A DNA stretch of 64,000 nt. It comes from an uncultured cyanobacterium. Lineage in GTDB: Bacteria > Cyanobacteriota > Vampirovibrionia > Vampirovibrionales > JAGQHJ01. This document shows positions 2,796 through 52,980 of this stretch, in pieces; within the stretch, counting starts at the first letter, position 1, and each line of letters starts with the position of its first letter. The stretch covers positions 1,240 through 65,239 of the forward strand of contig CALAJO010000037.1 of assembly GCA_937922745.1 (NCBI GenBank). The letters are read 5' to 3'. Below the pieces are notes generated by a model, which worked only from the letters and a program-made list of their open reading frames with translations, had not been told where the DNA came from and ran no database searches. The position numbers and the translations under genes are program-made.

Positions 2796-3788
2796 ATGAA
2801 GCATTATGTTAAGCAGGTTCGCCTATTCACCCTGTCACTCGGGGTGGTGTTTGCGCTCTCCGCGCATGCGCTTGCGGCCGATCTATCCGGCGACTTGAAC
2901 CGCATGGAACAGCAGCTGTTTACCCGCACTTATCCTGCCGATTCGGTTGACGCCCGGCTGGGGCGGATTGAATCGACCGTGTTTGGCGCTTCTAAAAACG
3001 ATCAACCCCAGGCACAGCGGCTTCAGGATTTGGGCCAATTCTTTCAGTTCCCGCAACAGGCACCGGCCACTGCCCAGCGCCCAGCGCCATCCGCCCCACC
3101 TTCCTACCAGCAAACACCTGCACCGGATGTGGTCACCTATCAACCCAATCAGCCCGTTGCGCCTAACACAACGTCTGTCAGTGGCTCGGAGTCGGAATAC
3201 CCCTCCGTGTTGGCGATGGAGCAACGGCTTTTTAGCAAAACCTACCCCACAGAACCGATTGAGAGCCGCCTGGCCCGAATTGAAAATAGGGTTCTCGGCA
3301 GCACACAAGCCGGATCCCTTCAGGAAAGAACCGATCAGCTCCGGTTGATGGTACTGGGCGATACCGGTTCCGGCGGATCAGAAGCTATGGCGAATGACAA
3401 CAGTTATAGCTCCGCTTCAGCCCCATCCGGTTCTGTCTCGGCAGCGGCTTCTGCGGATATGATCCAGGCCTTGCCCAAAGTAGAGAAACGCATCCTGGGG
3501 CGCAATTATACCGGCGATACCGTTGAGAACCGTTTAAGCCGCATTGAAACCAAGCTTTTCAACAGCACGGCGCCGGAGATGTCTCCGGACGATAGGTTTT
3601 ACCGCATTGTCAGCGTCGCGAACGCCCAGCGTTCCGGCCAAATGGAGCAGGCTTACCGTCGCGCCCCGATTGGCGTAGGAGTAGGGCCTTACGGGCGGTA
3701 TGGTTATGGAACAGGCTATCGGATGAACTCCGGCTTTGGCGTCGGCGGTTGGGGCACCTTGCTTCAAATCCTGCTAAACTTCATCTAA
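2796..3788 (+). CDS. Secreted protein with signal peptide, three 31-aa repeats (MEQ-LF--TYP----RL-RIE---G), Pro/Gln-rich linker and Gly/Tyr-rich C-terminus
   Basis: N-terminal hydrophobic signal ending AHALA-AD; internal repeats visible in the translation; no known family recognised. Confidence 0.6.
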   Translation: MKHYVKQVRLFTLSLGVVFALSAHALAADLSGDLNRMEQQLFTRTYPADSVDARLGRIESTVFGASKNDQPQAQRLQDLGQFFQFPQQAPATAQRPAPSAPPSYQQTPAPDVVTYQPNQPVAPNTTSVSGSESEYPSVLAMEQRLFSKTYPTEPIESRLARIENRVLGSTQAGSLQERTDQLRLMVLGDTGSGGSEAMANDNSYSSASAPSGSVSAAASADMIQALPKVEKRILGRNYTGDTVENRLSRIETKLFNSTAPEMSPDDRFYRIVSVANAQRSGQMEQAYRRAPIGVGVGPYGRYGYGTGYRMNSGFGVGGWGTLLQILLNFI

Positions 3789-4881
3789 ACGCCAAGCCGA
3801 CCGCATCCCGGATATGCGGAAGCTGATGCGTATCCAGCTTCTCGAGAATACCTTGGTTGATGCGGTTGAGAAGCCCTGGCCCTTCGTAAATCAGCCCGGT
3901 ATACACCTGTATCAGGTTTGCCCCGTGGCTAATCTTCTCCCAGGCGGAATCGGCATCGTTGATGCCGCCAACCCCGATTAAGACCGTGTCCGGCTGATGC
4001 CGTGTCAGATAATACAACTCTCCCAACAGGCGCGTGGACTTGTGTCGAAGCGGTTGGCCGCTCAGCCCGCCACGCCCGATAGCCTCAATCACCTTTTCAT
4101 GTGTTCTTAACCCTTCACGCCCCGACGTGGTGTTGGAGACAACCCATCCCGCAACTTCAAACCGGCAACCAATCTCAACGATCTCCTGAAGCTGGCTCCC
4201 CGTTAAATCCGGCGACAGCTTGAGCAATAATGGCCGAGCCTTCTTGGTTGCTTCTGCCAAACCCACTTGCCGAATGGCAGATAACAGCGTTTCCAAGGTT
4301 TCCGGATCCTCAAAGGTCTTGCCCTCTTCCGTATTCGGGCAACTGATGTTAAGGCAGACGTAGGCCCCATAGCCCGCTACAGCCTGGTAGGCCGCGATAA
4401 ATTCATCCAGGCCGGCTTGTCCCATCAATTGCGCATCCGGCGTTTTAACCAGGCTGATCCCGACCGGCCAATCGGCAGGCAGGCTTGCAATGCGCGGCTG
4501 AAGGGCCTGTACGCCAAGGTTATTCAAACCCATCCGGTTAATGATAGCTTGATCCTGGGGAAGGCGGAACAGACGTGGCTTGGCATTCCCTGGCCATGGC
4601 AACGCCGAAATGGAACCGGCTTCCATAAACCCGAAACCCAGCTTGCGTAACGCGCCTGTGATCCTCAAATTCTTGTCGAACCCAGCCGCGATGCCAACGG
4701 GATTCTGGAATGCGTATCCCCAAAACGATTGCTGGAGCCGCGGATCCTGCGTTTGTGGGTAGAAGCCGGCAACCCATCCGGCCATAAATTGGCTTCGTTC
4801 GGTCAAATCGAACACAACGTGATGCGCCACTTCCGGATCAAGTTGAAAAAGGAGCGGCTTTATCAGGCTTTTGTATATCAA
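3781..4881 (-). CDS. pyrD: Dihydroorotate dehydrogenase (quinone), class 2
   Basis: Motifs GFDKN, GFGFMEAGSI, NRMGLNNLG, SNTTSGREG typical of PyrD class 2; 366 aa. Confidence 0.9.
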   Translation of the reverse strand: MIYKSLIKPLLFQLDPEVAHHVVFDLTERSQFMAGWVAGFYPQTQDPRLQQSFWGYAFQNPVGIAAGFDKNLRITGALRKLGFGFMEAGSISALPWPGNAKPRLFRLPQDQAIINRMGLNNLGVQALQPRIASLPADWPVGISLVKTPDAQLMGQAGLDEFIAAYQAVAGYGAYVCLNISCPNTEEGKTFEDPETLETLLSAIRQVGLAEATKKARPLLLKLSPDLTGSQLQEIVEIGCRFEVAGWVVSNTTSGREGLRTHEKVIEAIGRGGLSGQPLRHKSTRLLGELYYLTRHQPDTVLIGVGGINDADSAWEKISHGANLIQVYTGLIYEGPGLLNRINQGILEKLDTHQLPHIRDAVGLAFR

Positions 4882-15996: not shown

Positions 15997-16683
15997 TTAG
16001 CTGGAGAGGCGGACGCCTGCACCGGATTGTGCGTTGCCGAGCGTGCCCACTGCACCGCCCATAACGCTACCGTTGGCGTTGTAGATGCCCTGGTTATCGT
16101 TGCCCCAGAAGAAGGCTTTCTGGCCGTCACGCGGGGTAAAGGCTGCGCCGGCGGCGTCAAAGTCGCCCCACTGGTTAAAGTTGCCCACAAAGATGTCTTG
16201 TCCGGCCTGGTTGGGGTTGGACGCGCCGTTAAAGTCGATACAAAGCATGGTGTTGGCGGCGGCTGCCGGGGTCACGGTCATGGTTGCGCCCGAGGAGAGA
16301 CCGGTGACGACGACGCCGTTAGGCAGTTGGAACCAACCGCTTTGAAATCCGGATGTGCCGCCACACGGGTGTCCGCCTGCGACACCGTTGAGTGGGCTGC
16401 CGGCGGCATCCACGTTCGCGGTGTTGGAAGCATTGGTAAAGTTAAGTGTGGGGACGATGTTGTTGTACAGGGTGCCGGTTGCGCCCACGGTTAACTGGTT
16501 TTGCATTTGCCTGCCGTAATAAGCCTGTTCCAGGGTAGAGACGGTTTCCCGGATTTTGGCGGTGGCTTCGGTGGTGCCTGCGGCTTGTAAAACCTTTGGT
16601 ATGGTAAAAGCAGCGATGATACCCAGCAGAGCCAAGGCGATCAAAAGTTCCGCCAACGTAAAGCCCTTTTGTGCTGTCCTCAT
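15997..16683 (-). CDS. pilA: Type IV pilin (prepilin with leader MRTAQKG|FTLAELLIALALLGIIAAF), copy 1
   Basis: Canonical class III signal G|FTLxE plus hydrophobic alpha-1; GGAGGAA SD 7 nt upstream of the ATG at 16683 (ORF track extends further 5' to 16734); Gly/Ala/Thr/Asn-rich globular part with two Cys. Confidence 0.85.
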   Translation of the reverse strand: MRTAQKGFTLAELLIALALLGIIAAFTIPKVLQAAGTTEATAKIRETVSTLEQAYYGRQMQNQLTVGATGTLYNNIVPTLNFTNASNTANVDAAGSPLNGVAGGHPCGGTSGFQSGWFQLPNGVVVTGLSSGATMTVTPAAAANTMLCIDFNGASNPNQAGQDIFVGNFNQWGDFDAAGAAFTPRDGQKAFFWGNDNQGIYNANGSVMGGAVGTLGNAQSGAGVRLSS

Positions 16684-16769
16684 TTCGATAGATTCCTCCG
16701 TTGTTCGCATCTGGGATGCAATTCCTTCACACACATGTATTTATTTACTGCTTATCGGCTAAGGCCATT

Positions 16770-16981: not shown

Positions 16982-17668
16982 TTAACTGGCGAGTCGGATA
17001 CCCGCGCCGGACTGTGCGTTGCCGAGCGTGCCCACTGCACCGCCCATTACGGTTCCGTTGGCGTTGTAGATGCCCTGGTTAGCGTTGCCCCAGAAGAAGG
17101 CTTTCTGGCCGTCACGCGGGGTAAAGGCTGCGCCGGCGGCGTCAAAGTCGCCCCACTGGTTAAAGTTGCCCACAAAGATGTCTTGTCCGGCCTGGTTGGG
17201 GTTGGCTGCGCCGTTAAAGTCGATACAAAGCATGGTGTTGGCGGCGGCTGCCGGGGTCACGCTCATGGTTGCGCCCGAGGAGAGACCGGTGACGACGACG
17301 CCGTTAGGCAGTTGGAACCAACCGCTTTGAAATCCGGATGTGCCGCCACACGGGTGTCCGCCTGCGACACCGTTAAGTGGGCTGCCGGCGGCATCCACGT
17401 TCGCTGTGTTGGAAGCATTGGTAAAGTTAAGTGTAGGGACGATGTTGTTGTACAGGGTGCCGGTTGCGCCCACGGTTAACTGGTTCTGCATTTGCCTGCC
17501 GTAATAAGCCTGTTCCAAGGTAGAGACGGTTTCCCGGATTTTGGCGGTGGCTTCGGTGGTGCCTGCGGCTTGTAAAACCTTTGGTATGGTAAAAGCAGCG
17601 ATGATACCCAGCAGAGCCAAGGCGATCAAGAGTTCCGCCAGCGTAAAGCCCTTTTGTGCTGTCCTCAT
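16982..17668 (-). CDS. pilA: Type IV pilin, copy 2 (about 97% identical to copy 1)
   Basis: Same prepilin leader and SD; a handful of conservative substitutions relative to copy 1. Confidence 0.85.
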   Translation of the reverse strand: MRTAQKGFTLAELLIALALLGIIAAFTIPKVLQAAGTTEATAKIRETVSTLEQAYYGRQMQNQLTVGATGTLYNNIVPTLNFTNASNTANVDAAGSPLNGVAGGHPCGGTSGFQSGWFQLPNGVVVTGLSSGATMSVTPAAAANTMLCIDFNGAANPNQAGQDIFVGNFNQWGDFDAAGAAFTPRDGQKAFFWGNANQGIYNANGTVMGGAVGTLGNAQSGAGIRLAS

Positions 17669-17769
17669 TTCGATAGATTCCTCCGTTGTTGCCATTGCGA
17701 TTCAGCTCCTTAAGACCAACTTTTTCTACATGCCAGGTTATCGACAAAGTTGAACTATGGGAGAGGGTA

Positions 17770-40369: not shown

Positions 40370-43300
40370 CTAGCTGACTTTTTCAAGCTGGGTTAACTTG
40401 GGATCCAAAAGTCGTTTGCCGATCCCTTCAAACGTAATGTTGAGGATGACCTGGTTATCGTCCATCGTAATCACGCGCTTGATAACCCCTTTACCATACC
40501 GCTGGTGTCGTACTTCTTCTCCTGCCTTGTATTCCACCGAAACGGACGGCGCAAGATTCGACTTGACGACGGGTATTCCCATGCCCTCTGCCGCTGGCGG
40601 CGTGTGGCTCGATGGATGCGGATCCGCTTGCTGGGGCAATATGTCCTGGTCGTGGAGTTCGGTGTACTGCACGGGCCGGGCTTCCTCAAAATCCAGCCCC
40701 AGGGAGAAATCCATCAGGTCATCCGCATTTTGATCGCCGTAGAGGAAATCAAGCGGATCTTTTTCGCTCCCGGTGTTGGCCGGAGCTTCGTTCTGCTCCG
40801 CGTGGGGCGGCTGATGCATCCATTCATCTGCGTTCAACTCCTGCAGGATATCACTCATTCCCTCCGTCTGCTGCTGGTGGATAGCGGTTGGGGTCGCCTG
40901 CTGTTCCGGCTCCTTGAAGTCCGAGAAATCAAAGTCGAGCGCCATCTCATCGTCAAAACCAAGCGCTGCGGTATCCAGGTGAAAAGGCGCTTCTTCCTCC
41001 TGTGCGATATCTGCCGGGGCAGAAGGCGTTGTCGATTCAGGCGGGGTCACTTCCAGCATGGATAAATCAAAGTCATTGCCCAGTTCTTCCGACGCCAGGG
41101 GCTCCAGTTGAAGCGATGGCGGCACGGGCTGCTGCGATGCCGAAACCGCGTTTTCCATCTCATCCCAATTGATATCCAGCCCCGGATCCAACTCAGGCGT
41201 ACTTGCCTGGGCTGAAGGCTCCTCATCCAGGCGCAGGGAAGGAGGCAGGAGGTTCTCGGAGCCATCGCCATCCGGTGCCGCAAATTCCATGTTCAACGCA
41301 AGCAGGGCTTCCAGGTTGGCATCCGGTTGAGGATCATTCATGGTGGCGTCCATCGCCGGATGCGGCATATCCAGAAAAGCTTCGCCGCTGGCCACAACCT
41401 GTTCCTTATCCAGCGTGGCATGCTTGTTGGGATTGATAAAGGTAGGCGGTTCGCTAGAATCCAGCAGGGCATCGTTGTCCAGGTCAAAGAACGGCAATGC
41501 GCCCGGCGATTCATGTTCTGGAGATACCCCTTCTTCCTGGGCAGGAGATTGCCCTTCGTTGAGATACGCCTGTAACCAGTCTTCCTCCTGTGGCATTGCT
41601 TCCTGTGCGGGCATTGCGGGTGCTGGGGCCGGTGCGTTTTCAACCGGTTGGGCGGCTGCCATCCGGGCGTTTTCTCCCAGCAGCGCCAGCAGATCCTCAT
41701 CGTTAAACCCTGCGCCCACCACGGTAACGTTTTCCTCGGGGTTGGAGGAAATGGCCGACGCAAGGGGGATATGCGCCTGCGCTTCATCGCCTTGGTTGTG
41801 GCCTAACTCCTGGAGATAAGCGAGCGCGTCATCCCGGTTCATATCCGAGGAGGCTTCCCCGTCCGGGCCTTTAATGTACACCTTGTCGTACACGGTTTGC
41901 GAGCTGGACTTGTACTCGGCATCCAGCTCCAGTTGCTCCGTATCCGTTTCCAGCTTTTTCTCGTGGACGGTTTCGATCAGATCCGGGGCCATATTGCCAA
42001 ACGGGCTTTCTTCCAGCTCTAGCGTGCCCAGTTCACCGTCCAGAGACAGTTCGGCCTGGCCCGGAACAAAGTCTACCTGGGGCATGCCCTTGGTAATATT
42101 CGGTATTTCCCGTTGCACGAGGAGGTAAAGCCCTTGCTCATCCGGGGAGGAAAGGCCGGACAGCTCCAGGCCGGAGAAATCCAGCCCCATTAAGTCATTT
42201 TCCGCAGGAGGCAATGGGTTGGGCTGCATTGCGCTTTGGCTTGCCTCAACCGGCGGCTCCAAAGCCTCCGGCAAGCCGGGCAGATCCAAAGCAACCGGCT
42301 CTGGGTTCAATATCATCTCCTGGGGCAACGTCAGCGATTCATCATGGGGCGCTTCTGCCGGCTCGGATTGTGTGGGTTCGGTGGCGGTTTCATTGAAAAT
42401 GGGTTCGTTTGCTGCATTTTCAGTCTTGGGGGCTGTATCATTCCAGCTTAGCAGTTCCGCCTCAAAGGAATCGAAAGAGGTCGGCAGATCCAAATCCAAC
42501 TGCGGCAAGTCGCCAAGGGCATTATGTTCCGATTCTTGCAGCTCGGGGGAGGGCTCTGGCGCGTCATCTACAGCTAACGGCTGGAACGGTGGCATGGCTT
42601 CGGTTTGCTCCTCAATGCCGTCGCTTTGTTCTACAAAGCTGTCGAACAGGGCTTCCTCAAACGCCAGGGATTGCTCCAGGCTTTCGGAAAGCATCTGGAC
42701 GGGTTCTTTGGGTTCTGCCTGGACGGGAGTATCCGGTGCATGGTCTTGCGGGGGATGCTCCGGTTGCGCCGTATCCGAGGCTGGCATTTGCGAGGGCAGG
42801 TCGAGATCCAGTGACCCGAAGTCCAGGTTGAATGACGCCATGGACAGTTCCGGCATGTCGTCTTCAGGCGGATGATTGACCGGCTGGGGCGTTTCGGTTG
42901 TAGAAGGCAGTTCCTCTGCCGGGAGCGTATGCTGGAGCAATGTTTCTATGTTCACTTCCTCAGAGGCAACGTTTTCAGGAGGAGGGTTTTCCGAGGGAGC
43001 CGTGTTTGCTTCAACTGTTTCGTTTAATGAGGGCAGGGTGTCCAGCCCATCGAAATTCAGGTCGAACGAAGCCTCGGTTTGCATTGGGGTGGAATGATCC
43101 GATCTCAGAAAGCCGTCAAAATCCGATAACTCTTCATCGAAGACATCTGGACTCGGCGGCGTCAAGCTTTCCGTGGGTGTCGCGTCGGGTGTGCTTCGCA
43201 TAAACCTGTCGAATTCCGCCAAGTCGGGATCCGCATCGAAGCTGCGAATGGGTGTTTTCGGGGCAGGTTCGACAGCTTGCGCTTGTTGGGAGGAAACAGG

Positions 43301-45085
43301 TTCGGTATCCGGCACGCTGCGCATAAAGCTGTCAAAGGCGGCAAAGTCGTCGTCATTGATGTTCTCAATGTCCAATCCCGGCAGGATGTTCAAGTTTTCC
43401 AGCGGCGGCGGTTTTAGGGAATCACTGATGTTGGCGGCATCATCACCGAAAACCGGGTGGGGAAGTTCCCATTCGCCACTTTCCGGCTGACTGGGAATAG
43501 GAGTGAAAACCTCCGGGACAGCCTCCTCATAATCGATCTGGGCAGCCGCCATTAAGGTTTCAAAGTCCCGTGTTTGGTTCTCCTCAGCCAGGGCCGATTC
43601 TTCCAGAGGATGCTCCGATGATTCGCCCTCCGGCGGGCGCTCGTGGCTTTCCGGTTCAAAAGCCGCCTCGATTTCCAGCGGAGCCAAAGGCATATTCGCA
43701 GGGAGATGTCCCAAACCGGGCAATTCTCCAAAGGGTTCTTCAGACGGCTGAAAATCCTCTTCTGCCGGGATATGACGAGAGGCTTCAAGGCTTTGCTCAG
43801 CTTCCAAAGGTTGAACTGCTTGCGGGATAGCCTCAATTGGCGCATTGTCGTCGGATAGTCGAAGTTCTTGGCCATCAAAACCAGATGGTTCTATCATGGG
43901 CTCGGCTTCGGGTATCTGCGGCGCAGCCTCAGCTATTAAGCCCGGCGGTTGGGGCTGATCGGGTTCCGGAAAAAAATCGGGCTCTTCCACGGTCTTGTCC
44001 GGGATAAACAGATCCAGCCCGCTCGTGATGTCGCCGCTGATTTGGATGCCGTTATCACCGAAAACGCGCTTTTCTTCCCAGCGGTCATTAATGTACTCGT
44101 CCCAATACCGGCTCACGTTGCTTACCAAAAAGGTGCGGTGGCGTGTGTGTCTTATAAATTCCAGCGTTGCGTCCGTTTCGATCTCACAAGCTACCAGCAT
44201 CATATGCGTATCCGGATGAAGGTTCTGCCGGGACGCCATGCGCAGAAGGCCCGCGTAAGCAAACGGGAGAAACTCCGAAGGCAACTGGGACAGGTTAATG
44301 TGCAGGGATTGCGGCAGGTGGTCCAGTCGCAGGATGTTGTTGGGATTGGAGGTGAATAACCGGCTGGTGTGGAATGCGTATAACTGGTGCAGGATAACGG
44401 CGGAAAGCGGGTGTTGTTGCATTGCCGGGTGATTGACGAAATACTGGAGCGGGATAAAGTCCGGTGTGGCGGGAACCAGGCTTAACAGAAAACGCGACGC
44501 TTCCGCCTGGATGGTTTTGGGCAGGTTCGCCACAATCCACTCGATAAAATTGCTAATGCCCACATCCTGGATGGATAGGCGGGCGTCAATCCCCGCATAC
44601 AGTTCCTTAACACCTGTTTCGGACAGGTTAATGCCCACCGGGTCCAGGATGAGGATCGGCAGCCGGGCCTCCTGAAGGCTATGGATGACTTTACGGTGAA
44701 GCCCAACCTTGCTGGGCTTGACATACACGATATGCCCGGAGTCATTCAGATCCATCACAATGTCATTCAGGGATATTGGTGCAACCGGATCGCTTTGCTC
44801 CAGCCGCAAACGGAAGTATTCCTTAGGCGAAACGGTTTTAACCGACTGAACCCGTGTGTCCGGCTGACCGGATACGGGGAGCATCATCAGTTTCAGCGCG
44901 TCCGGGCTATCCGGCTCCTGTAGGACGCTTTCAATCTGCGCATAATAATGCTGGCCGGTCCGGGTGATAAAGTCGAGAATCGTCCCCGGCTTTGGCAGAA
45001 CCGCCCATTGTGTACACCGACCTTCAATCGTATTGGCTGTCAGTTTCTCAATCGATATTGTTAACGCGGCCATGGACTCCAACAT
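40370..45085 (-). CDS. Giant (1571 aa) highly acidic, largely disordered repeat protein with a structured about 330-aa N-terminal domain and a C-terminal UvrD/PcrA-C-terminal-like (Tudor/SH3-like) domain
   Basis: Continuous ORF; D/E/P/Q/S/L-rich with recurring [DE]F[DA]xF[ML]RSxPD and SF[DN]L[ND]FxxLD motifs; C-terminus GEEVRHQRYGKGVIKRV...VILNITFEGIGKRLLDPKLTQLEKV resembles helicase UvrD_C_2/DUF3553. Confidence 0.7.
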   Translation of the reverse strand: MLESMAALTISIEKLTANTIEGRCTQWAVLPKPGTILDFITRTGQHYYAQIESVLQEPDSPDALKLMMLPVSGQPDTRVQSVKTVSPKEYFRLRLEQSDPVAPISLNDIVMDLNDSGHIVYVKPSKVGLHRKVIHSLQEARLPILILDPVGINLSETGVKELYAGIDARLSIQDVGISNFIEWIVANLPKTIQAEASRFLLSLVPATPDFIPLQYFVNHPAMQQHPLSAVILHQLYAFHTSRLFTSNPNNILRLDHLPQSLHINLSQLPSEFLPFAYAGLLRMASRQNLHPDTHMMLVACEIETDATLEFIRHTRHRTFLVSNVSRYWDEYINDRWEEKRVFGDNGIQISGDITSGLDLFIPDKTVEEPDFFPEPDQPQPPGLIAEAAPQIPEAEPMIEPSGFDGQELRLSDDNAPIEAIPQAVQPLEAEQSLEASRHIPAEEDFQPSEEPFGELPGLGHLPANMPLAPLEIEAAFEPESHERPPEGESSEHPLEESALAEENQTRDFETLMAAAQIDYEEAVPEVFTPIPSQPESGEWELPHPVFGDDAANISDSLKPPPLENLNILPGLDIENINDDDFAAFDSFMRSVPDTEPVSSQQAQAVEPAPKTPIRSFDADPDLAEFDRFMRSTPDATPTESLTPPSPDVFDEELSDFDGFLRSDHSTPMQTEASFDLNFDGLDTLPSLNETVEANTAPSENPPPENVASEEVNIETLLQHTLPAEELPSTTETPQPVNHPPEDDMPELSMASFNLDFGSLDLDLPSQMPASDTAQPEHPPQDHAPDTPVQAEPKEPVQMLSESLEQSLAFEEALFDSFVEQSDGIEEQTEAMPPFQPLAVDDAPEPSPELQESEHNALGDLPQLDLDLPTSFDSFEAELLSWNDTAPKTENAANEPIFNETATEPTQSEPAEAPHDESLTLPQEMILNPEPVALDLPGLPEALEPPVEASQSAMQPNPLPPAENDLMGLDFSGLELSGLSSPDEQGLYLLVQREIPNITKGMPQVDFVPGQAELSLDGELGTLELEESPFGNMAPDLIETVHEKKLETDTEQLELDAEYKSSSQTVYDKVYIKGPDGEASSDMNRDDALAYLQELGHNQGDEAQAHIPLASAISSNPEENVTVVGAGFNDEDLLALLGENARMAAAQPVENAPAPAPAMPAQEAMPQEEDWLQAYLNEGQSPAQEEGVSPEHESPGALPFFDLDNDALLDSSEPPTFINPNKHATLDKEQVVASGEAFLDMPHPAMDATMNDPQPDANLEALLALNMEFAAPDGDGSENLLPPSLRLDEEPSAQASTPELDPGLDINWDEMENAVSASQQPVPPSLQLEPLASEELGNDFDLSMLEVTPPESTTPSAPADIAQEEEAPFHLDTAALGFDDEMALDFDFSDFKEPEQQATPTAIHQQQTEGMSDILQELNADEWMHQPPHAEQNEAPANTGSEKDPLDFLYGDQNADDLMDFSLGLDFEEARPVQYTELHDQDILPQQADPHPSSHTPPAAEGMGIPVVKSNLAPSVSVEYKAGEEVRHQRYGKGVIKRVITMDDNQVILNITFEGIGKRLLDPKLTQLEKVS

Positions 45086-47023: not shown

Positions 47024-47515
47024 CTAGCGCAATATGTTTTCGAGCAGCAGGCGAATCAAGCTATTCGGATCAAATTCAGATTGAGCGCCAGATATTGGCC
47101 CACTTAAATCAGGATGGATAATTGTGCCGAGTACCGAAGGATCCAATCCCGCTTCGTCACCAACAAGCGCCGTAGTGATCATTTGGTTAGGGTCAAATTC
47201 AGTGACACTGCCTATAGGCCCGTTAACATCCCGGCTGGGATTAGGCGAGGAGCCAATAGATATTCGTTCAGGAGTTATGCCTGCTTCATCACCAACCATC
47301 GCCATTGTAAACAGGCGGTTTGGATCGAATTCGGGTCCTCCGCCCTGGATAGGATCACTTAAGTCTGGTTTGCTGTTAATGCCGCAACTCACGTCGGAGG
47401 GTTTCAAGCCCGCTTCATCGCCAACCATTGCCATTGTAAACAATTGATCGGCTCTTGGTGCGGAAGCCGCCTTGCCGTAAGGAGTTGCAAGGATGTTAAA
47501 ATTGATAAATGTCAT
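47024..47515 (-). CDS. Small repeat protein: three tandem 45-aa repeats (..F/ITMAMVGDEAGL.P......P..S.PI.G..SEFDPN)
   Basis: Repeats obvious in the translation; AT-rich promoter region upstream (47520-47650). Confidence 0.6.
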   Translation of the reverse strand: MTFINFNILATPYGKAASAPRADQLFTMAMVGDEAGLKPSDVSCGINSKPDLSDPIQGGGPEFDPNRLFTMAMVGDEAGITPERISIGSSPNPSRDVNGPIGSVTEFDPNQMITTALVGDEAGLDPSVLGTIIHPDLSGPISGAQSEFDPNSLIRLLLENILR

Positions 47516-48009: not shown

Positions 48010-48684
48010 ATGGAGTGGTTGGTTATGACAAAGCATTTTAACCTCATTAAGGGAACCCGCGTGCTGTTTGCCGCCTTTTTGACGACTTATGCCCTTTTAT
48101 CCGTGGGGTATACGGCCAAGCTCAGCGATCTCATCAAGCGAGCGCCGCAGCTTTTTCTCCCCAGCCAAATCCTGCCGGGGCAGACCACCACGTTTACCGT
48201 CAAGGGCAAGCCCGGCAAGCAGGTCAAGCTGATTTTATCCGATACTGCCGTGAATCGCGAGCTGGATTCCGGTGTGACGCTTCGGGTTGGGGAACCGGTT
48301 TTAGAGAAAGAAGTGACGATTCCTGAAACCGGGGTTGTGCAAATCCCGGTTGAGATTCCCCAGAACATTGGGGAAGCCGGACAACGGAAATTCGTGGAAG
48401 CGATTGTCTGGTCCAGCCCGGATCAGAGCGATGCGGAAGTCGTTCAGATTATCGAATCATCCGGGAATGAGACCACCGAAAATGCCGTGATGGTGGGCGC
48501 AGAACCGGATCGCGGAAACACCATCCTGGTGCCGGGCGATCCCAACCTGGCGAACGTAATGCGGACGCTGGACACCTTGAGCAATACCAGCCAGGATCCG
48601 CGCAAGCGGGATTTGATTGATAGCGGCGCCATCAACCGGAAACGCCAGTTGGATTCCAATCTCTATAACAACACCCGGTTTTAG
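48010..48684 (+). CDS. Hypothetical secreted protein (signal peptide; start likely MTKHFN.. at 48025)
   Basis: N-terminal hydrophobic segment VLFAAFLTTYALLSVGYTA; no known domain. Confidence 0.5.
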   Translation: MEWLVMTKHFNLIKGTRVLFAAFLTTYALLSVGYTAKLSDLIKRAPQLFLPSQILPGQTTTFTVKGKPGKQVKLILSDTAVNRELDSGVTLRVGEPVLEKEVTIPETGVVQIPVEIPQNIGEAGQRKFVEAIVWSSPDQSDAEVVQIIESSGNETTENAVMVGAEPDRGNTILVPGDPNLANVMRTLDTLSNTSQDPRKRDLIDSGAINRKRQLDSNLYNNTRF

Positions 48685-48714: not shown

Positions 48715-50610
48715 CTACTGGCCATAACCATAATAGTAGTTGCTGTTCGCTGCATTATTACCGTAAGTATAAGCGGCTGGATAAGTGTAGCCCTGGCCGG
48801 CATTCGTTGTGTTATAGCCATACTGCTGATAACTGGGGTATTGGTACGGGCTGTAGGCAGCGCTAGTGTTATAGTTGCTGTAGTAGCCGCTGTTGGCATA
48901 ATTGTTGTAATACGCCATGCTGGGCTGCGAATAGTAGGGTGAATAGTACACATTGGGATATTGGGCATAGCCCTGGGCCTGCTGCGGATAGGTGTAAGCA
49001 TACCCTGGGTAGGAAGCCTGCTGTTCCTGCGCCATTTGAGCGTTCATGGCCGCTTCCTCTTCCATAATCATCCGCTGGTAATCATCCAGGAAGGCTTGCT
49101 GTTTCTCTGTCGGAACCGTTCTCAGCAGATTGTACCTGGCGGCGTCCGTCTGATCCGGGATAAGGTACTGGTTTGAGGCCAGCTTGGTATTAATGTCGTT
49201 CCAGATCTTATGGGCAATCTTTGCCGGGAAGCCGGCGTGGTGAATCATCGGGATCATCTCCCGGGCAGACCGCTTGACCAGCTTAGGGTTATCGTCATCG
49301 CTATCGGCTGTAATGAAATAGACTTCGCCGGTTTTGGGATCTTTTTCGTAGCCGGTAATCGTCAGCTCATGCTTCATATCCAGACGGCCGGTCGTTCCGC
49401 CGAACCGATCCGTTGTGACAATGCCGACCAGGACATCTTCGCCGATATCAATGGCCGAGATGATGTCTTGCAAGGTCTGGTCGAAACTGCGGTAGTAGCC
49501 CATCAAGTAGGGTTCGTTATCGCGGCCCGCGGCAGTAAACTGGTACACAACGGACATCACGCCGCCGTTATCCTTGATGATGCTTTCCATCAAAGTTTTG
49601 CGTTCTTCTTCCAGGCCCTTATCGTAGTCCAGCGTCCCATCCGGGTTGACGCGCATGTCTAATCCCGGATCGTAGGACTGAGCCGCAAGTTTGGTCAACG
49701 CACCCTGATACAGCGCTTCGACAACACCGCGCGCGCCGGGCTCCTTGTTCCGTTGCTGGTTAACCGCGCGAATCAGGCCGCTTTGGGGAAGGTTAACGGT
49801 AACCCAGTACTGCTGGTTATTGGTGCCGGGCACCGGCGTTGCGGGAATGCCGTATTCGTTTAACCGCTCTGCCGCCAGGGAAGGATCTTCCGGCGCAATC
49901 TCGTTAATGGCAGCTTTTTCCACAAAAGCCAGCCTGGGGCTGCTCAGCTCCGCAATGTGCCGTGTAAACTCGCTGGGGCTTCGGTAAGCCATATAGTACA
50001 TCACGCTGGAGGCCACACAGGTTGCGCTGGATGTCACCCGCAGGGTTTCCATATCGATGGGCTGGGAAATTTGCGGTCCGGCGCCACTGTTATAGTAGTC
50101 CATCAAGGCCCGCAGGTTCTGGGGCGTCAAGGTGCCAAAGCGTTGGGTAATGGTCTGGGGCTCGTTAATCAGGCGAACCGTCTCTTCCAGGACAACTTTT
50201 GCATCCAAGCCAGCCGCTTTTTTATTTGTTGCGATTGCATAGAGATGATCCAGCGTGGTTTTCCCATCATCCGATTTATTGTCGGTCAGGCGACCTTTTT
50301 TAAGCTGCTGGTATAAATGCTTTTTGCCGGTTGCAGAAAGGTTTTCCTGGAGCGTGCGGTACATCGCCAGGCGTGTGCCGAATGTTTCACCGGGCTGGAG
50401 TTTTACCTTCAACATCTTGTTGAGTTGCAACGACTCAAACGGATGCAGGATCCAGTCGACAATACTCAGGCTCTTGGATGCGGCCGGCTTGGCTGCGGGA
50501 ATGAATTCCTGGCCGGGCAAAATCGTTACGGCGTCAACGGCCTTTGGCGTTGATGGCACCGCAGAAAGCGGGTTATAGGGCGTTTGGATTGAGGAAACAG
50601 TATTCAACAT
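48715..50610 (-). CDS. Large hypothetical protein with about 120-aa Q/N/Y/G-rich prion-like low-complexity C-terminal tail
   Basis: 631-aa ORF; C-terminus YPGYAYTYPQQAQGYAQYPNVYYSPYYSQPSMAYYNNYANSGYYSNYNTS...; globular N-terminal part with a conserved Cys..His pair but no assignable family. Confidence 0.6.
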   Translation of the reverse strand: MLNTVSSIQTPYNPLSAVPSTPKAVDAVTILPGQEFIPAAKPAASKSLSIVDWILHPFESLQLNKMLKVKLQPGETFGTRLAMYRTLQENLSATGKKHLYQQLKKGRLTDNKSDDGKTTLDHLYAIATNKKAAGLDAKVVLEETVRLINEPQTITQRFGTLTPQNLRALMDYYNSGAGPQISQPIDMETLRVTSSATCVASSVMYYMAYRSPSEFTRHIAELSSPRLAFVEKAAINEIAPEDPSLAAERLNEYGIPATPVPGTNNQQYWVTVNLPQSGLIRAVNQQRNKEPGARGVVEALYQGALTKLAAQSYDPGLDMRVNPDGTLDYDKGLEEERKTLMESIIKDNGGVMSVVYQFTAAGRDNEPYLMGYYRSFDQTLQDIISAIDIGEDVLVGIVTTDRFGGTTGRLDMKHELTITGYEKDPKTGEVYFITADSDDDNPKLVKRSAREMIPMIHHAGFPAKIAHKIWNDINTKLASNQYLIPDQTDAARYNLLRTVPTEKQQAFLDDYQRMIMEEEAAMNAQMAQEQQASYPGYAYTYPQQAQGYAQYPNVYYSPYYSQPSMAYYNNYANSGYYSNYNTSAAYSPYQYPSYQQYGYNTTNAGQGYTYPAAYTYGNNAANSNYYYGYGQ

Positions 50611-50751: not shown

Positions 50752-52554
50752 TTACTTCTTGCTCAGGCCGGATTTTTTCTGTTTGGATTGCGACTTGCTT
50801 ATGTCGCTCTCCATTTGAGCCAATCGAGTCGCAATCTCGGTAGATGGATCGAGTTCAGAAGCAAGTTTCAGGTGTTTTTGGGCCTGGCTCCATACCTGCT
50901 GATTAAAATAGGCCTGCGCCATTTCAATCTGTATCGCCGCAGACAAAGGATCGAAATGCTGCGCTTGATCCAAGACTTTAAGTGCCTTATCGCCCATTTT
51001 AACGGCATTAAAGGTTTTGGCCTGGCTGACAAGGCTTTGTGCCCTGGATTGATCGCTTTGCGCCCATTGCAGCATCTCGTTCTGGAAGGCGCCAACATCC
51101 TCGTTAAGAGAAAGCTGCTTGGCCCAAGGCCAGGCCCCGATCAGCATAAAGCGCTGCAATTGCTGCTCCAGCGATTTTGGGGCGTCGAATTGGCTCGTCA
51201 TATTCTGGGCGTTTACCGGTTGATGAAGCAGGATGTAAGCTTCGGCCTTCAGATAGGCGTTGCTTTGCTGCTTGGCAAACTGCTCCAAAGCCATAAGCAA
51301 ACCCGGCGACCATTCGCCCGTGCGAATAACCTGGAGCTGCATATCACTCAGCTCAAGCACCGGCGATAACCCTTTTTCCTGGCGCTTGCGGATCCATCCT
51401 TCAAGCTCGTCCAGCGAGGACGACATGGGACGAGCGCCTTCCATCCATTGCCGAAAGCGAATCGAAACCATCAGGGTCAACAGGTCTTCCCGATCCGGGG
51501 CAATCAGGAATGCCTTGCGGTAGAGCGGCAGGGCCTCGTTCAGCTTCCGGCTCCAAAAGGCATTGGTTGCCTGCTGGATAAAGGTTTGAAGCATGCCGGG
51601 GTTGGCCTGATACGCTTTTTGATAGGCCAGCATAGCCTCTTTTTCCCGGTTCAGGCTATCCAAGATTTGGGCATATTTAATCCAGTTTTCGGTTCGCTTG
51701 GGCCACAGCGTCACCAGTTTTTTGTAGCTTTCGGCCGCCTTTTCGGTTTTTCCGGTTTGTTGCTGGGCCTGCGCTATCAGCATCAATCGCCGGTAGCGTG
51801 GCTTGGGATCCAGGGCCTGGGATTTTTCAAGCGCATTCAGCCCGCGGGCCGGATCGCCTTTTTGGCTGAAAAAACGGCCCATCAGGAAGAGGGTGTCCAC
51901 GTCGTTAGGTTGCAGCTCCAGCGTGTGCGCCAGCAGGTTGGAGGTTTCAGGGATCATGTCCCGGTCAAGGTACACATCCAACAGGGCGTGATGGGTTCGG
52001 ATAAAGTTAGCGTCTAGCGCATGGGATCGAAGCAAGTGGTTTTCAGCCAGCTCAAGCTCTCCTTGTAAGTAGGCGCGCATCCCCTTTAGATAATAGGTAC
52101 CCGCATGGTTTGGATCTGCGGCCTCTGCTTTGCTAATGAGTTGGCTTAGCTTGGGCAACGCTTTACCAAGCTCGGTTTTATCCCGTGTAACGGGTAGGCC
52201 CAGGAGCAAATCGGCCTGCATTATCAGGATGTCGTAATGGTTTGGGAACTGTTTGCCCGCCCTGCCGAAGATAGCATTGGCTTCGTTTGGTTTATTGAGT
52301 AGAAGATACTGTTGCAGCAATTCCTGGTAATATCCAAGCTGGCTCGTATCGGCTTTTAATTTGGCTTGCAGCAGGGAAACAATCTCTTCCGGTTTCAGCC
52401 CATCGGTGGAAAGCATCATGGTGGCTTCATTCGCATAGGATGAAGCACACCAAACCGCATCAACACTGGCCTGGGATATCATCAATGCAAAAATTGAAAA
52501 CCAGTAATTGATTATTTTGTTTTTTTGTCTTTTCATACTGGTAGTTCCACTCAT
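50752..52554 (-). CDS. TPR-repeat protein with N-terminal signal peptide (secreted or lipoprotein)
   Basis: MKRQKNKIINYWFSIFALMISQASVDA signal; more than 10 TPR repeats; start at 52554 or 52536. Confidence 0.7.
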   Translation of the reverse strand: MSGTTSMKRQKNKIINYWFSIFALMISQASVDAVWCASSYANEATMMLSTDGLKPEEIVSLLQAKLKADTSQLGYYQELLQQYLLLNKPNEANAIFGRAGKQFPNHYDILIMQADLLLGLPVTRDKTELGKALPKLSQLISKAEAADPNHAGTYYLKGMRAYLQGELELAENHLLRSHALDANFIRTHHALLDVYLDRDMIPETSNLLAHTLELQPNDVDTLFLMGRFFSQKGDPARGLNALEKSQALDPKPRYRRLMLIAQAQQQTGKTEKAAESYKKLVTLWPKRTENWIKYAQILDSLNREKEAMLAYQKAYQANPGMLQTFIQQATNAFWSRKLNEALPLYRKAFLIAPDREDLLTLMVSIRFRQWMEGARPMSSSLDELEGWIRKRQEKGLSPVLELSDMQLQVIRTGEWSPGLLMALEQFAKQQSNAYLKAEAYILLHQPVNAQNMTSQFDAPKSLEQQLQRFMLIGAWPWAKQLSLNEDVGAFQNEMLQWAQSDQSRAQSLVSQAKTFNAVKMGDKALKVLDQAQHFDPLSAAIQIEMAQAYFNQQVWSQAQKHLKLASELDPSTEIATRLAQMESDISKSQSKQKKSGLSKK

Positions 52555-52620
52555 GGACTGTTGGTATAATACCGTCAGGTTTGATACCGAATCATCGTAT
52601 AACGACGGGAACTTGCATAA

Positions 52621-52980
52621 ATGTATACACAAGGCTTTGGTGTACTGTTAATTCTTTTTCTCTGTTCCATTATCTTTGCGCTAAGCACTATTTTGATTTC
52701 CTGGATTGTGAATCCCAAGGCACCCAACCCGCTTAAAAACACGCCGTACGAGTCGGGGATGAACCCCTTTGGCGAAGCGCACATCAAGTTTGACGTTAAG
52801 TTCTACCTGTACGCATTGCTCTTTATCCTCTTCGATATCGAGGCCATGTTCCTGTTTCCGTGGGCCGCTTCCTTCGTGAACCTGGGGCTTCTGGGCTTGT
52901 TTGAAATGTTTATCTTTATTGCTATACTTTTTCTAGGGCTGGTTTACGCTTGGCGGCGTAAAGCTCTGGACTGGCAGTAA
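52621..52980 (+). CDS. nuoA: NADH-quinone oxidoreductase subunit A
   Basis: 119 aa, 3 TM, conserved NuoA/ND3 loop PYESG. Confidence 0.9.
   Translation: MYTQGFGVLLILFLCSIIFALSTILISWIVNPKAPNPLKNTPYESGMNPFGEAHIKFDVKFYLYALLFILFDIEAMFLFPWAASFVNLGLLGLFEMFIFIAILFLGLVYAWRRKALDWQ

Follow-up and report, generated by a model that had tools for sequence, protein, structure and literature searches.

Introduction

Cysteine peptidases of the papain-like clan CA present their catalytic residues in the order Gln, Cys, His, Asp, with the Cys at the N-terminus of a helix, the His on a β-strand and the acid after the next strand; in papain, the Gln lies ∼6 residues before the catalytic Cys. A Cys-His-Asp set is also found in transglutaminase-like proteinases of the BTLCP/LapG type, and LapG-type enzymes are periplasmic. 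Here we describe a gene at positions 48715–50610 (minus strand) of a 64,000-nt stretch of DNA from an uncultured member of the Vampirovibrionales (contig CALAJO010000037.1); the whole of this stretch is referred to as the window. The gene product of 631 amino acids (aa), to which all residue numbers refer, appears to join a divergent papain-like core to a disordered, Tyr-rich C-terminal tail that is free of charged residues.

The closest described counterparts of such a tail are the low-complexity (LC) domains of FUS, EWS and TAF15 and the N-terminal domain of Sup35 (Sup35N). These domains are disordered, consist almost entirely of Y, Q, N, G, S, A, P and T with virtually no charged or aliphatic residues, contain ∼15–16% Tyr, and belong to RNA-binding or translation factors. 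Q/N-rich prion domains reportedly contain at least 30 Q+N per 80 residues (the Michelitsch-Weissman criterion). Among bacteria, the prion domain of Clostridium botulinum Rho provides the precedent for a heritable switch. About 11 prion-like proteins are predicted per bacterial proteome, and prion-like character is sporadically conserved within a disordered region that itself persists (Harrison 2019, PMC6400439). Mutagenesis of hnRNP libraries has identified aromatic residues as the strongest prion promoters, with Tyr strongly promoting in each of the two libraries; in that of hnRNPA1, Pro was inhibitory (Cascarina et al. 2018, PMC6059496).

No publications on the present protein family were found in a literature search, and the genome paper of Vampirovibrio chlorellavorus lists peptidases by MEROPS BLAST only (PMC4451040). 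What is new here is the family itself and the combination of a conserved, predicted enzyme core with a tail that is missing in some members and reaches 30% Tyr in others, while the fold class and the existence of bacterial prion-like regions were known.

Results

A conserved core with papain-like placement of the predicted catalytic residues

The coding sequence is complete (48715–50610, minus strand; 631 aa followed by a TAG stop in the list of open reading frames, ORFs), and homologues with conserved N-termini support its start. The initial annotation of this DNA had placed the ORF exactly, and the peptide quoted there is found in the translation. An identical protein is present in public databases (P0001). 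A word-index search retrieved 58 homologues of 457–714 aa, all unnamed or "hypothetical" and none with a Pfam domain; the few named ones come from Vampirovibrio. Twenty alignment columns are invariant among these homologues, including Q156, C198, R217, H414, E415, D436, D438 and H457/H458. When the comparison was extended to two distant alignments of 107 and 83 members, with identities down to ∼20%, equivalents of Q156, C198, H414 and D436 were at least 90% conserved in both, and R217 reached this level in the 107-member alignment only. D438 and the motif IHHAG (H457/H458) are conserved in the nearer clades only, and IHHAG is lost in the sequences that are most distant. Over ∼165 aligned homologues, Q156, C198, H414 and D436 are invariant or near-invariant. 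C198 is the single Cys of the protein, which contains eight His.

An AlphaFold2 (AF2) model computed from the 58-sequence alignment gave a predicted template modelling score (pTM) of 0.81, and the predicted local distance difference test (pLDDT) exceeded 90 for nearly all of residues 41–530 and was below 50 for residues 1–29. The model trimmed to residues 161–500 had a pLDDT of 93.9. Conserved columns, AF2 and Foldseek delimit a predicted, divergent catalytic domain of the clan CA type at residues 191–500 (49111–50040, minus strand), and the conserved columns mark a candidate triad of C198 (50017–50019), H414 (49369–49371) and D436 (49303–49305). The preceding domain is all-helical (residues 46–190; 50041–50475, minus strand; AF2 helices over residues 50–175, pLDDT >90), carries the conserved motifs DDGHSTLYHLY and ITQKF, and contains Q156 (50143–50145), which its conservation makes a candidate oxyanion-hole Gln. 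Helix 198–210 of the model starts with C198, H414 lies inside strand 409–423, and D436 directly follows strand 430–435. As modelled, nucleophile, base and orienting acid are placed as is canonical for a papain-like fold, and the order Gln, Cys, His, Asp is that of clan CA as well.

Clan CA also ranked first in the structure searches. Foldseek against the PDB returned mostly papain-family (C1) matches, with probabilities up to 1.00, among them dionain, procerain, cathepsins B, H and C, Pd_dinase/BDI_2249 and bleomycin hydrolase, and further Lpg2622, TDE_0362, prostaphopain B and UfSP. Among the predicted viral structures of BFVD, three matches fell below E = 1e-3: the best was a phage "papain-like cysteine protease AvrRpt2" (C70-like; E 8.6e-5), followed by two mycobacteriophage Lysin A proteins (E 1.5e-4 and 5.7e-4). 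The initial annotation had pointed to a Cys...His pair that could be papain-like or transglutaminase-like. The papain-like version agrees with the invariance and placement of C198 and H414 and with the best fold matches. The transglutaminase-like version finds no support: an invariant Cys-His-Asp set is common to BTLCP/LapG proteinases and this family, but no Transglut_core or LapG hidden Markov model (HMM) matched, no transglutaminase was among the listed top Foldseek matches, and the family lacks the signal peptide that would fit a periplasmic enzyme of the LapG type.

Other results weigh against a papain-like assignment. The E-values of the PDB matches were 2e-3 or worse, with none below 1e-3, and TM-scores did not exceed 0.3. 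Neither the single protein nor the family profile had a meaningful match in sequence searches of Pfam, NCBIfam and the PDB; no peptidase HMM matched the query, the profile or the 83 distant members; and hhalign of the family profile against papain gave no signal (probability 0.8%). Q156 and C198 are separated by 42 residues, far more than in papain. The domain is also much larger than in clan CA peptidases (∼310 aa with inserted subdomains, in addition to the 145-aa helical N-domain), has no recognisable prodomain, and is confined to one bacterial class. At the sequence level, the protein does not belong to any described peptidase family; membership of the clan CA superfamily is probable, although the structural scores behind it are weak. 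We read these results as a family not described before and highly divergent, which has a clan-CA-like fold and a predicted Gln/Cys/His/Asp catalytic set, in which Q156, C198, H414 and D436 would act in the papain manner.

A disordered, charge-free and Tyr-rich tail

The core is linked to the tail by a long amphipathic helix, 'EKQQAFLDDYQRMIMEEEAAMNAQMAQEQQ' (residues 501–532; 49015–49110, minus strand), for which AF2 gave 10-residue block means of 93–94, and the motif QQAFL..YQRM within this helix is kept in near-clade homologues. Beyond the helix, residues 533–631 (48718–49014, minus strand) form a charge-free low-complexity tail that is predicted to be disordered, with pLDDT values of 27–37 and below 50 throughout residues 540–631. 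Residues 531–631 comprise 29.7% Y, 12.9% A, 11.9% N, 10.9% Q, 9.9% S, 8.9% G, 7.9% P and 5.9% T, and aside from these eight only one V and one M, with no D, E, K or R. Given the composition of the protein's own core, the probability of at least 30 Tyr in 101 residues is 1.4e-16 and that of no charged residue in 101 is 1.7e-12; the entropy of the tail is 2.92 bits, as against 3.86–3.97 in windows of the core. The initial annotation had described a tail of about 120 residues, almost only Y, Q, N, G, S, A and P. The low-complexity composition stands, and the length is reduced to ∼100 aa, as residues 501–532 belong to the predicted helix.

The tail is a genuine part of the gene as far as the DNA can tell. 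A microsatellite-like assembly error, a concern raised in the initial annotation, was rejected: Tandem Repeats Finder (TRF) detected no tandem repeat in the tail DNA, Tyr codons are mixed (17 TAT, 13 TAC), and the Logan assembly of run ERR9287890 is identical to the window DNA (100% over 3896 nt). An origin by frameshift was rejected as well: the frame runs continuously from the conserved core, and the two alternative frames are not credible, one being stop-interrupted and the other encoding an unrelated sequence. A C-terminal Tyr cluster of the type found in BY-kinases was considered and set aside; the tail is ∼100 aa long and has no kinase domain attached.

A search of 5.8 billion proteins with the tail alone yielded one word-sharing candidate and nothing at E ≤1; the tail is without sequence relatives there, a result that excludes both a conserved domain and a sorting signal in the tail. 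The short linear motifs PPxY, YPxL and NPxY had no match each in the tail, and no segment comparable to it was found in other ORFs of the window.

Relation to described prion-like domains

In composition, the tail is nearest to the reference sequences FUS-LC (Jensen-Shannon divergence 0.128) and Sup35N (0.152), compared to 0.342 for its own core, and it shows the disorder and the depletion of charged and aliphatic residues expected of a yeast-type prion domain. The two differ from it in several respects. Tyr is about twice as frequent in the tail (30%), Ala is richer, and oligopeptide repeats are absent. Overall Q+N is 23%, and the maximum of 20 Q+N per 80 residues in the tail falls short of the number given above for prion domains. 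The tail is attached to a predicted enzyme of a bacterium, with no sign of horizontal transfer. Its 30 Tyr are dispersed in uncharged spacers of A, N, Q, S, G, P and T (mean gap 3.3 residues, maximum 9), as in the sticker-spacer arrangement of FUS, but they mostly stand beside Y, G, P or A; a [GS]Y[GS] motif occurs only once, and the even spacing of the FUS type was not found. The variance of the Tyr gaps was 5.1 compared to 7.05 in shuffled tails, with 21% of shuffles at or below the observed value, and YY pairs were not significantly depleted. In its regularity, the Tyr spacing does not surpass that of shuffled tails and shows no sign of selection for sticker patterning, which counts against a tail shaped for association.

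As a measure of prion propensity, we applied the two per-residue ln(odds ratio) scales of Cascarina et al. 2018 (Table 2, PMC6059496), an improvised use of a mutagenesis table rather than a validated predictor. The last 80 aa of the tail scored +0.113 on the hnRNPA2 scale and +0.190 on the hnRNPA1 scale. The best 80-aa window of the protein's own core scored +0.073 and −0.022, respectively, and three reference prion-like domains scored ∼−0.06 to −0.13 and ∼−0.06 to −0.08. Four of 50 orthologue tails were positive on both scales, and the tail of the window protein was the highest on the hnRNPA1 scale.

By its composition, the tail is a Tyr-rich polar low-complexity domain rather than a Q/N-rich prion domain. 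The label first given to it, a eukaryote-like prion-like Q/N/Y/G-rich domain, is apt in that the tail is predicted to be disordered, is aromatic-rich and charge-free, and resembles FUS-LC and Sup35N in composition, and inapt as to Q/N richness. The likeness to eukaryotic domains extends to composition only, and the gene itself is vertically inherited within a syntenic core genome of Vampirovibrionia. Rarity in bacteria was overstated: with ∼11 predicted prion-like proteins per proteome (PMC6400439), tails of this kind are uncommon rather than extraordinary. Described bacterial cases, such as C. botulinum Rho, linkers of SSB and the set of Harrison 2019, resemble the tail in being sporadic within orthologous families, other members of which have a differently composed disordered region at the same position (PMC6400439). 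What defines those sets is N/Q richness or a PLAAC/PAPA call, whereas the present tail is Tyr-driven, and it sits on a putative peptidase of a single lineage instead of a housekeeping factor of universal occurrence.

The tail across the family

Beyond the conserved P485, 54–205 further residues follow in ∼50 of the 58 homologues, and a tail is retained though core identity drops to ∼35–40%. In the nearest clade (P0002–P0006 and P0008–P0012; core identity 45–62%), the last 80 residues contain ∼10–31% Tyr, with tails such as "YPGSYYANYGQYY...YYSNYGNYNNYNAY" and "YGYGYGYGNGYYNRYPQYNTGYY", and among the 58, the tail of the window protein has the highest Tyr content. Composition drifts from Y/N/G/S-rich in this clade to P/Q/A-rich in the Vampirovibrio clade, in which Tyr is almost nil. 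Low charge is the steadier property, with 0–12% charged residues in the last 80 positions of almost all tails compared to 23.5% in the core of the window protein. The conserved thing is a charge-poor disordered appendage, not a domain, and the tails of the family follow the sporadic pattern that Harrison 2019 described (PMC6400439).

The absence or marked shortening of the tail in independent assemblies or close relatives had been named as what would refute the tail; the Logan assembly and the tails of most homologues showed the contrary. Two kinds of tail-less entry were nevertheless present. P0056–P0058 (457–466 aa) are effectively tail-less, with 4–10 residues after P485, so that the tail may be dispensable for the function of the core, a point that tells against a central role for it; these tail-less homologues of ∼450–470 aa are N/K-rich and appear to correspond to the loci of Gastranaerophilales. 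The other is the close relative P0007, a 474-aa entry that is explained by an in-frame TGA at ∼5420 of its locus (L003; metagenome-assembled genome, MAG, JANWIO010000151.1), in '...NEINSR*KDQS...'. Past this TGA, the same frame runs on through the conserved helix and a P/Q/Y-rich tail; a sequencing error, a nonsense mutation that arose recently, or read-through might account for the TGA.

We also scanned 0.52 Mb of fetched Vampirovibrionia DNA for stretches of 40 residues that contain at least 7 Tyr and no more than 2 charges. Such stretches occurred only at the C-termini of target orthologues and in one other protein, encoded at 3845–4870 (plus strand) of locus L019 (CAYLWC010000025.1, an uncultured Vampirovibrionales MAG). 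This unrelated protein has a Tyr/Pro/Gly-rich C-terminal tail, 'GGYPAPYYQSPYYPGGYAQPYGMRPYGYPTNTYPVAPGYY...', and is laid out as a signal peptide, a transmembrane (TM) helix, Lys-Lys and then the Y/P/G-rich tail, a topology by which the tail should be cytoplasmic. It has the motif 'RL.RI(E/Q)...FG' in common with the window ORF 2796–3788, which has only a short G/Y-rich end.

Predicted location and possible substrate

Hydrophobic segments were scored with a threshold of 1.9; three exported controls scored 1.89–2.35, one of them just under the threshold. None of the 159 full-length family members had an N-terminal or internal hydrophobic segment above 1.9, indicative of a signal peptide or TM segment, and the protein is therefore predicted to be cytoplasmic or to be exported by a route independent of Sec and Tat. 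LysM was the only accessory Pfam domain, present in one of the 83 distant members: P0154 (669 aa) has an N-terminal LysM (E 3e-7), without a signal peptide, fused to the family core. Many distant members have N-terminal extensions of 170–280 aa without a Pfam match. This single fusion, together with the fold likeness to Lysin A, hints weakly by analogy that the substrate might be cell-wall peptide stems; the lack of a signal peptide and the housekeeping surroundings of the gene speak against it.

Distribution, inheritance and gene neighbourhood

A profile search of 1.84 billion cluster representatives yielded 443 family members at E<1e-3, 239 of them at E<1e-10, each a cluster representative at 50% identity and, like the 58 homologues, unnamed or "hypothetical". 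A scan of one genome per GTDB species gave 61 loci, labelled Vampirovibrionales, Gastranaerophilales, Melainabacteria or unclassified, bar a few in evidently mis-binned MAGs. The latter are L008, L025, L042 and L056, in MAGs labelled Oculatellaceae (a photosynthetic cyanobacterium) or Muribaculaceae (Bacteroidota), and L008 shows synteny of the Vampirovibrionales type, with SecG downstream. These four are probably mis-binned or mislabelled contigs, not a sign of wider distribution. As judged from these searches, the family is confined to the class Vampirovibrionia (Melainabacteria), which is sister to Cyanobacteria and does not photosynthesise.

The gene order in the window is IleRS, a 1571-aa protein, RarA, Maf, SecG, a 224-aa protein (N224), the target gene, a tetratricopeptide repeat (TPR) protein, NuoA and NuoB, and this neighbourhood is syntenic with V. 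chlorellavorus. Placement in a syntenic core genome and confinement to one class indicate vertical inheritance rather than a mobile element or a eukaryotic import; horizontal acquisition from a eukaryote, considered as a source of the tail-bearing gene, was rejected on these grounds. The Gastranaerophilales loci lie in a different context (OLD-like TOPRIM, NAD kinase, RecN) that has nothing in common with that in Vampirovibrionales, and the neighbourhood consequently offers no clue to function.

The arrangement of the target gene with convergent N224 and SecG recurs in ∼20 Vampirovibrionales loci. N224 (48010–48684, plus strand) ends with its stop codon 30 nt from that of the target gene, begins with a hydrophobic segment (signal or anchor; peak 2.07) and had no match in a Pfam search. 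From this conserved adjacency, N224 could be a partner or inhibitor, or the linkage could be plain synteny. On the other side, the gene for the TPR protein (50752–52632, minus strand; Pfam TPR families) lies upstream and ends 141 nt before the coding sequence. No convincing promoter or terminator was found between the two genes, with motif counts at or below shuffle expectation, and they may be co-transcribed. This adjacency is present in close relatives only (L002, L003, L063) and is interrupted in V. chlorellavorus.

Discussion

The explanation that we favour, with middling confidence, is that the gene encodes a divergent papain-like cysteine hydrolase specific to Vampirovibrionia, cytoplasmic or non-classically exported, with a tail that mediates association. 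The core would act as a thiol hydrolase, be it a peptidase or an amidase or transferase of related type. In most of the 58 homologues, which come mainly from Vampirovibrionales, the tail persists as a P/Q/Y-rich appendage, disordered and poor in charge, with its sequence and exact composition free to drift and with the window lineage at an extreme (30% Tyr, Pro-poor, uncharged). Because Tyr is experimentally prion-promoting, we propose that the tail could serve as a multivalent Tyr-based module of self- or hetero-association rather than as a folded domain or a sequence-specific signal, and it would concentrate, sequester, anchor or immobilise the enzyme in a condensate, by reversible assembly, or by binding to a partner or surface. 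A broader version of this idea, by analogy with the tail in L019, is that Vampirovibrionales use Tyr-rich, charge-free tails as a portable module of cytoplasmic condensation or assembly; the hydrolase would be turned on or off, or localised, through phase separation or amyloid-like assembly driven by its tail, with the L019 protein as a membrane-anchored partner. We regard this extension as quite doubtful; if true, it would be an independently evolved bacterial counterpart of FUS/Sup35-type domains on a new enzyme of the clan CA kind.

An alternative that we consider possible, though on balance unlikely, takes the tail for a neutral, fast-evolving disordered appendage, such as a spacer, an entropic bristle or tolerated junk, in which Tyr accumulated by drift and has no assembly function. 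Sequence conservation is nil, Tyr varies from 0 to 31% among orthologues and is patterned as at random, the shorter members of the Gastranaerophilales type do without a tail, one orthologue has an in-frame stop before it, and bacterial prion-like regions in general are known to behave in the same sporadic way (PMC6400439). Drift alone sits less easily with tails of 54–205 aa in ∼50 of 58 homologues despite core identities of ∼35–40%, with charge held at 0–12% where the core has 23.5%, and with some ten independent near-clade orthologues that are all Tyr-rich (10–31%). Moreover, 30 exposed Tyr in an uncharged context would be expected to be costly through aggregation unless they are used. Heritable switching between a soluble, active and an aggregated, inactive enzyme, which would make the tail a true prion or amyloid domain, is a very improbable reading. 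It gains from the compositional proximity to Sup35N and FUS-LC, from disorder and absence of charge, and from an hnRNPA1-scale score that is the highest in the family, with scores above those of the three reference domains on both scales. It loses by the low Q/N count (20 per 80 residues), by 8% Pro and 9% Gly spread throughout the tail, by the solitary [GS]Y[GS], and by strongly positive scores in only ∼4 of 50 orthologue tails, from which it follows that any prion behaviour would be lineage-specific. An artefact (assembly error, frameshift or mis-called stop) can be regarded as effectively refuted: low-complexity ends are a classic class of artefact and one orthologue has an in-frame stop upstream of its tail, but two assemblies agree, no tandem repeat is present, the frame continues from the conserved core with no plausible alternative, and dozens of independent MAGs have tails of the same position and character.

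It is rather unlikely, in our view, that the protein is secreted as an effector or works as an enzyme at the cell surface, such as a peptidase acting on peptidoglycan or prey walls and delivered by a non-Sec route such as a type IV secretion system (T4SS), with the tail as an element of adhesion, carbohydrate binding or export. Aromatic-rich sequences commonly bind polysaccharides, the fold resembles phage Lysin A and an effector protease of the AvrRpt2 type, P0154 is fused to LysM, and the neighbouring N224 has an export-type N-terminus. In addition, V. chlorellavorus has been predicted to inject hydrolytic enzymes via a T4SS (PMC4451040). These points are offset by the lack of a Sec/Tat signal in all 159 members, by LysM in just one of 83 distant members, by housekeeping surroundings (SecG, Maf, RarA, NuoAB, IleRS) instead of a secretion or virulence island, by the predicted cytoplasmic location of the only other Tyr-rich tail found, and by a tail that has no conserved motif for a secretion receptor to recognise. 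The family also occurs in MAGs labelled Gastranaerophilales, an order that is not known to be predatory.

Taken alone, the tail adds one to the thousands of prion-like regions predicted in bacteria and overturns no expectations. The family has wider significance: at least 443 clusters at 50% identity are without a Pfam model and have a clear predicted catalytic signature, which makes the family a candidate both for a marker and for a lineage-specific enzyme of this non-photosynthetic relative of Cyanobacteria. With one conserved core and tails that go from none through Pro/Gln-rich to 30% Tyr, it also offers a natural series for relating low-complexity composition to assembly in bacteria.

Additional features of the window

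At its N-terminus, the target protein begins with a disordered extension rich in P, S, A and T (residues 1–45; 50476–50610, minus strand), for which AF2 pLDDT was 29–41 over residues 1–30 and up to 67 over residues 31–40. Two ORFs of the conserved neighbourhood had no Pfam match: the 1571-aa ORF at 40370–45085 (minus strand) between IleRS and RarA, at E ≤1e-3, and a 163-aa ORF at 47024–47515 (minus strand) between Maf and SecG, which is made up of a unit close to '(E)FDPN.L.TMAMVGDEAG(L/I).P', repeated three to four times. Elsewhere in the window, the tandem ORFs 15997–16734 and 16982–17695 (both minus strand; 245 and 237 aa) have an identical 40-aa stretch, GSPLNGVAGGHPCGGTSGFQSGWFQLPNGVVVTGLSSGAT, in common, which points to a recent tandem gene duplication.

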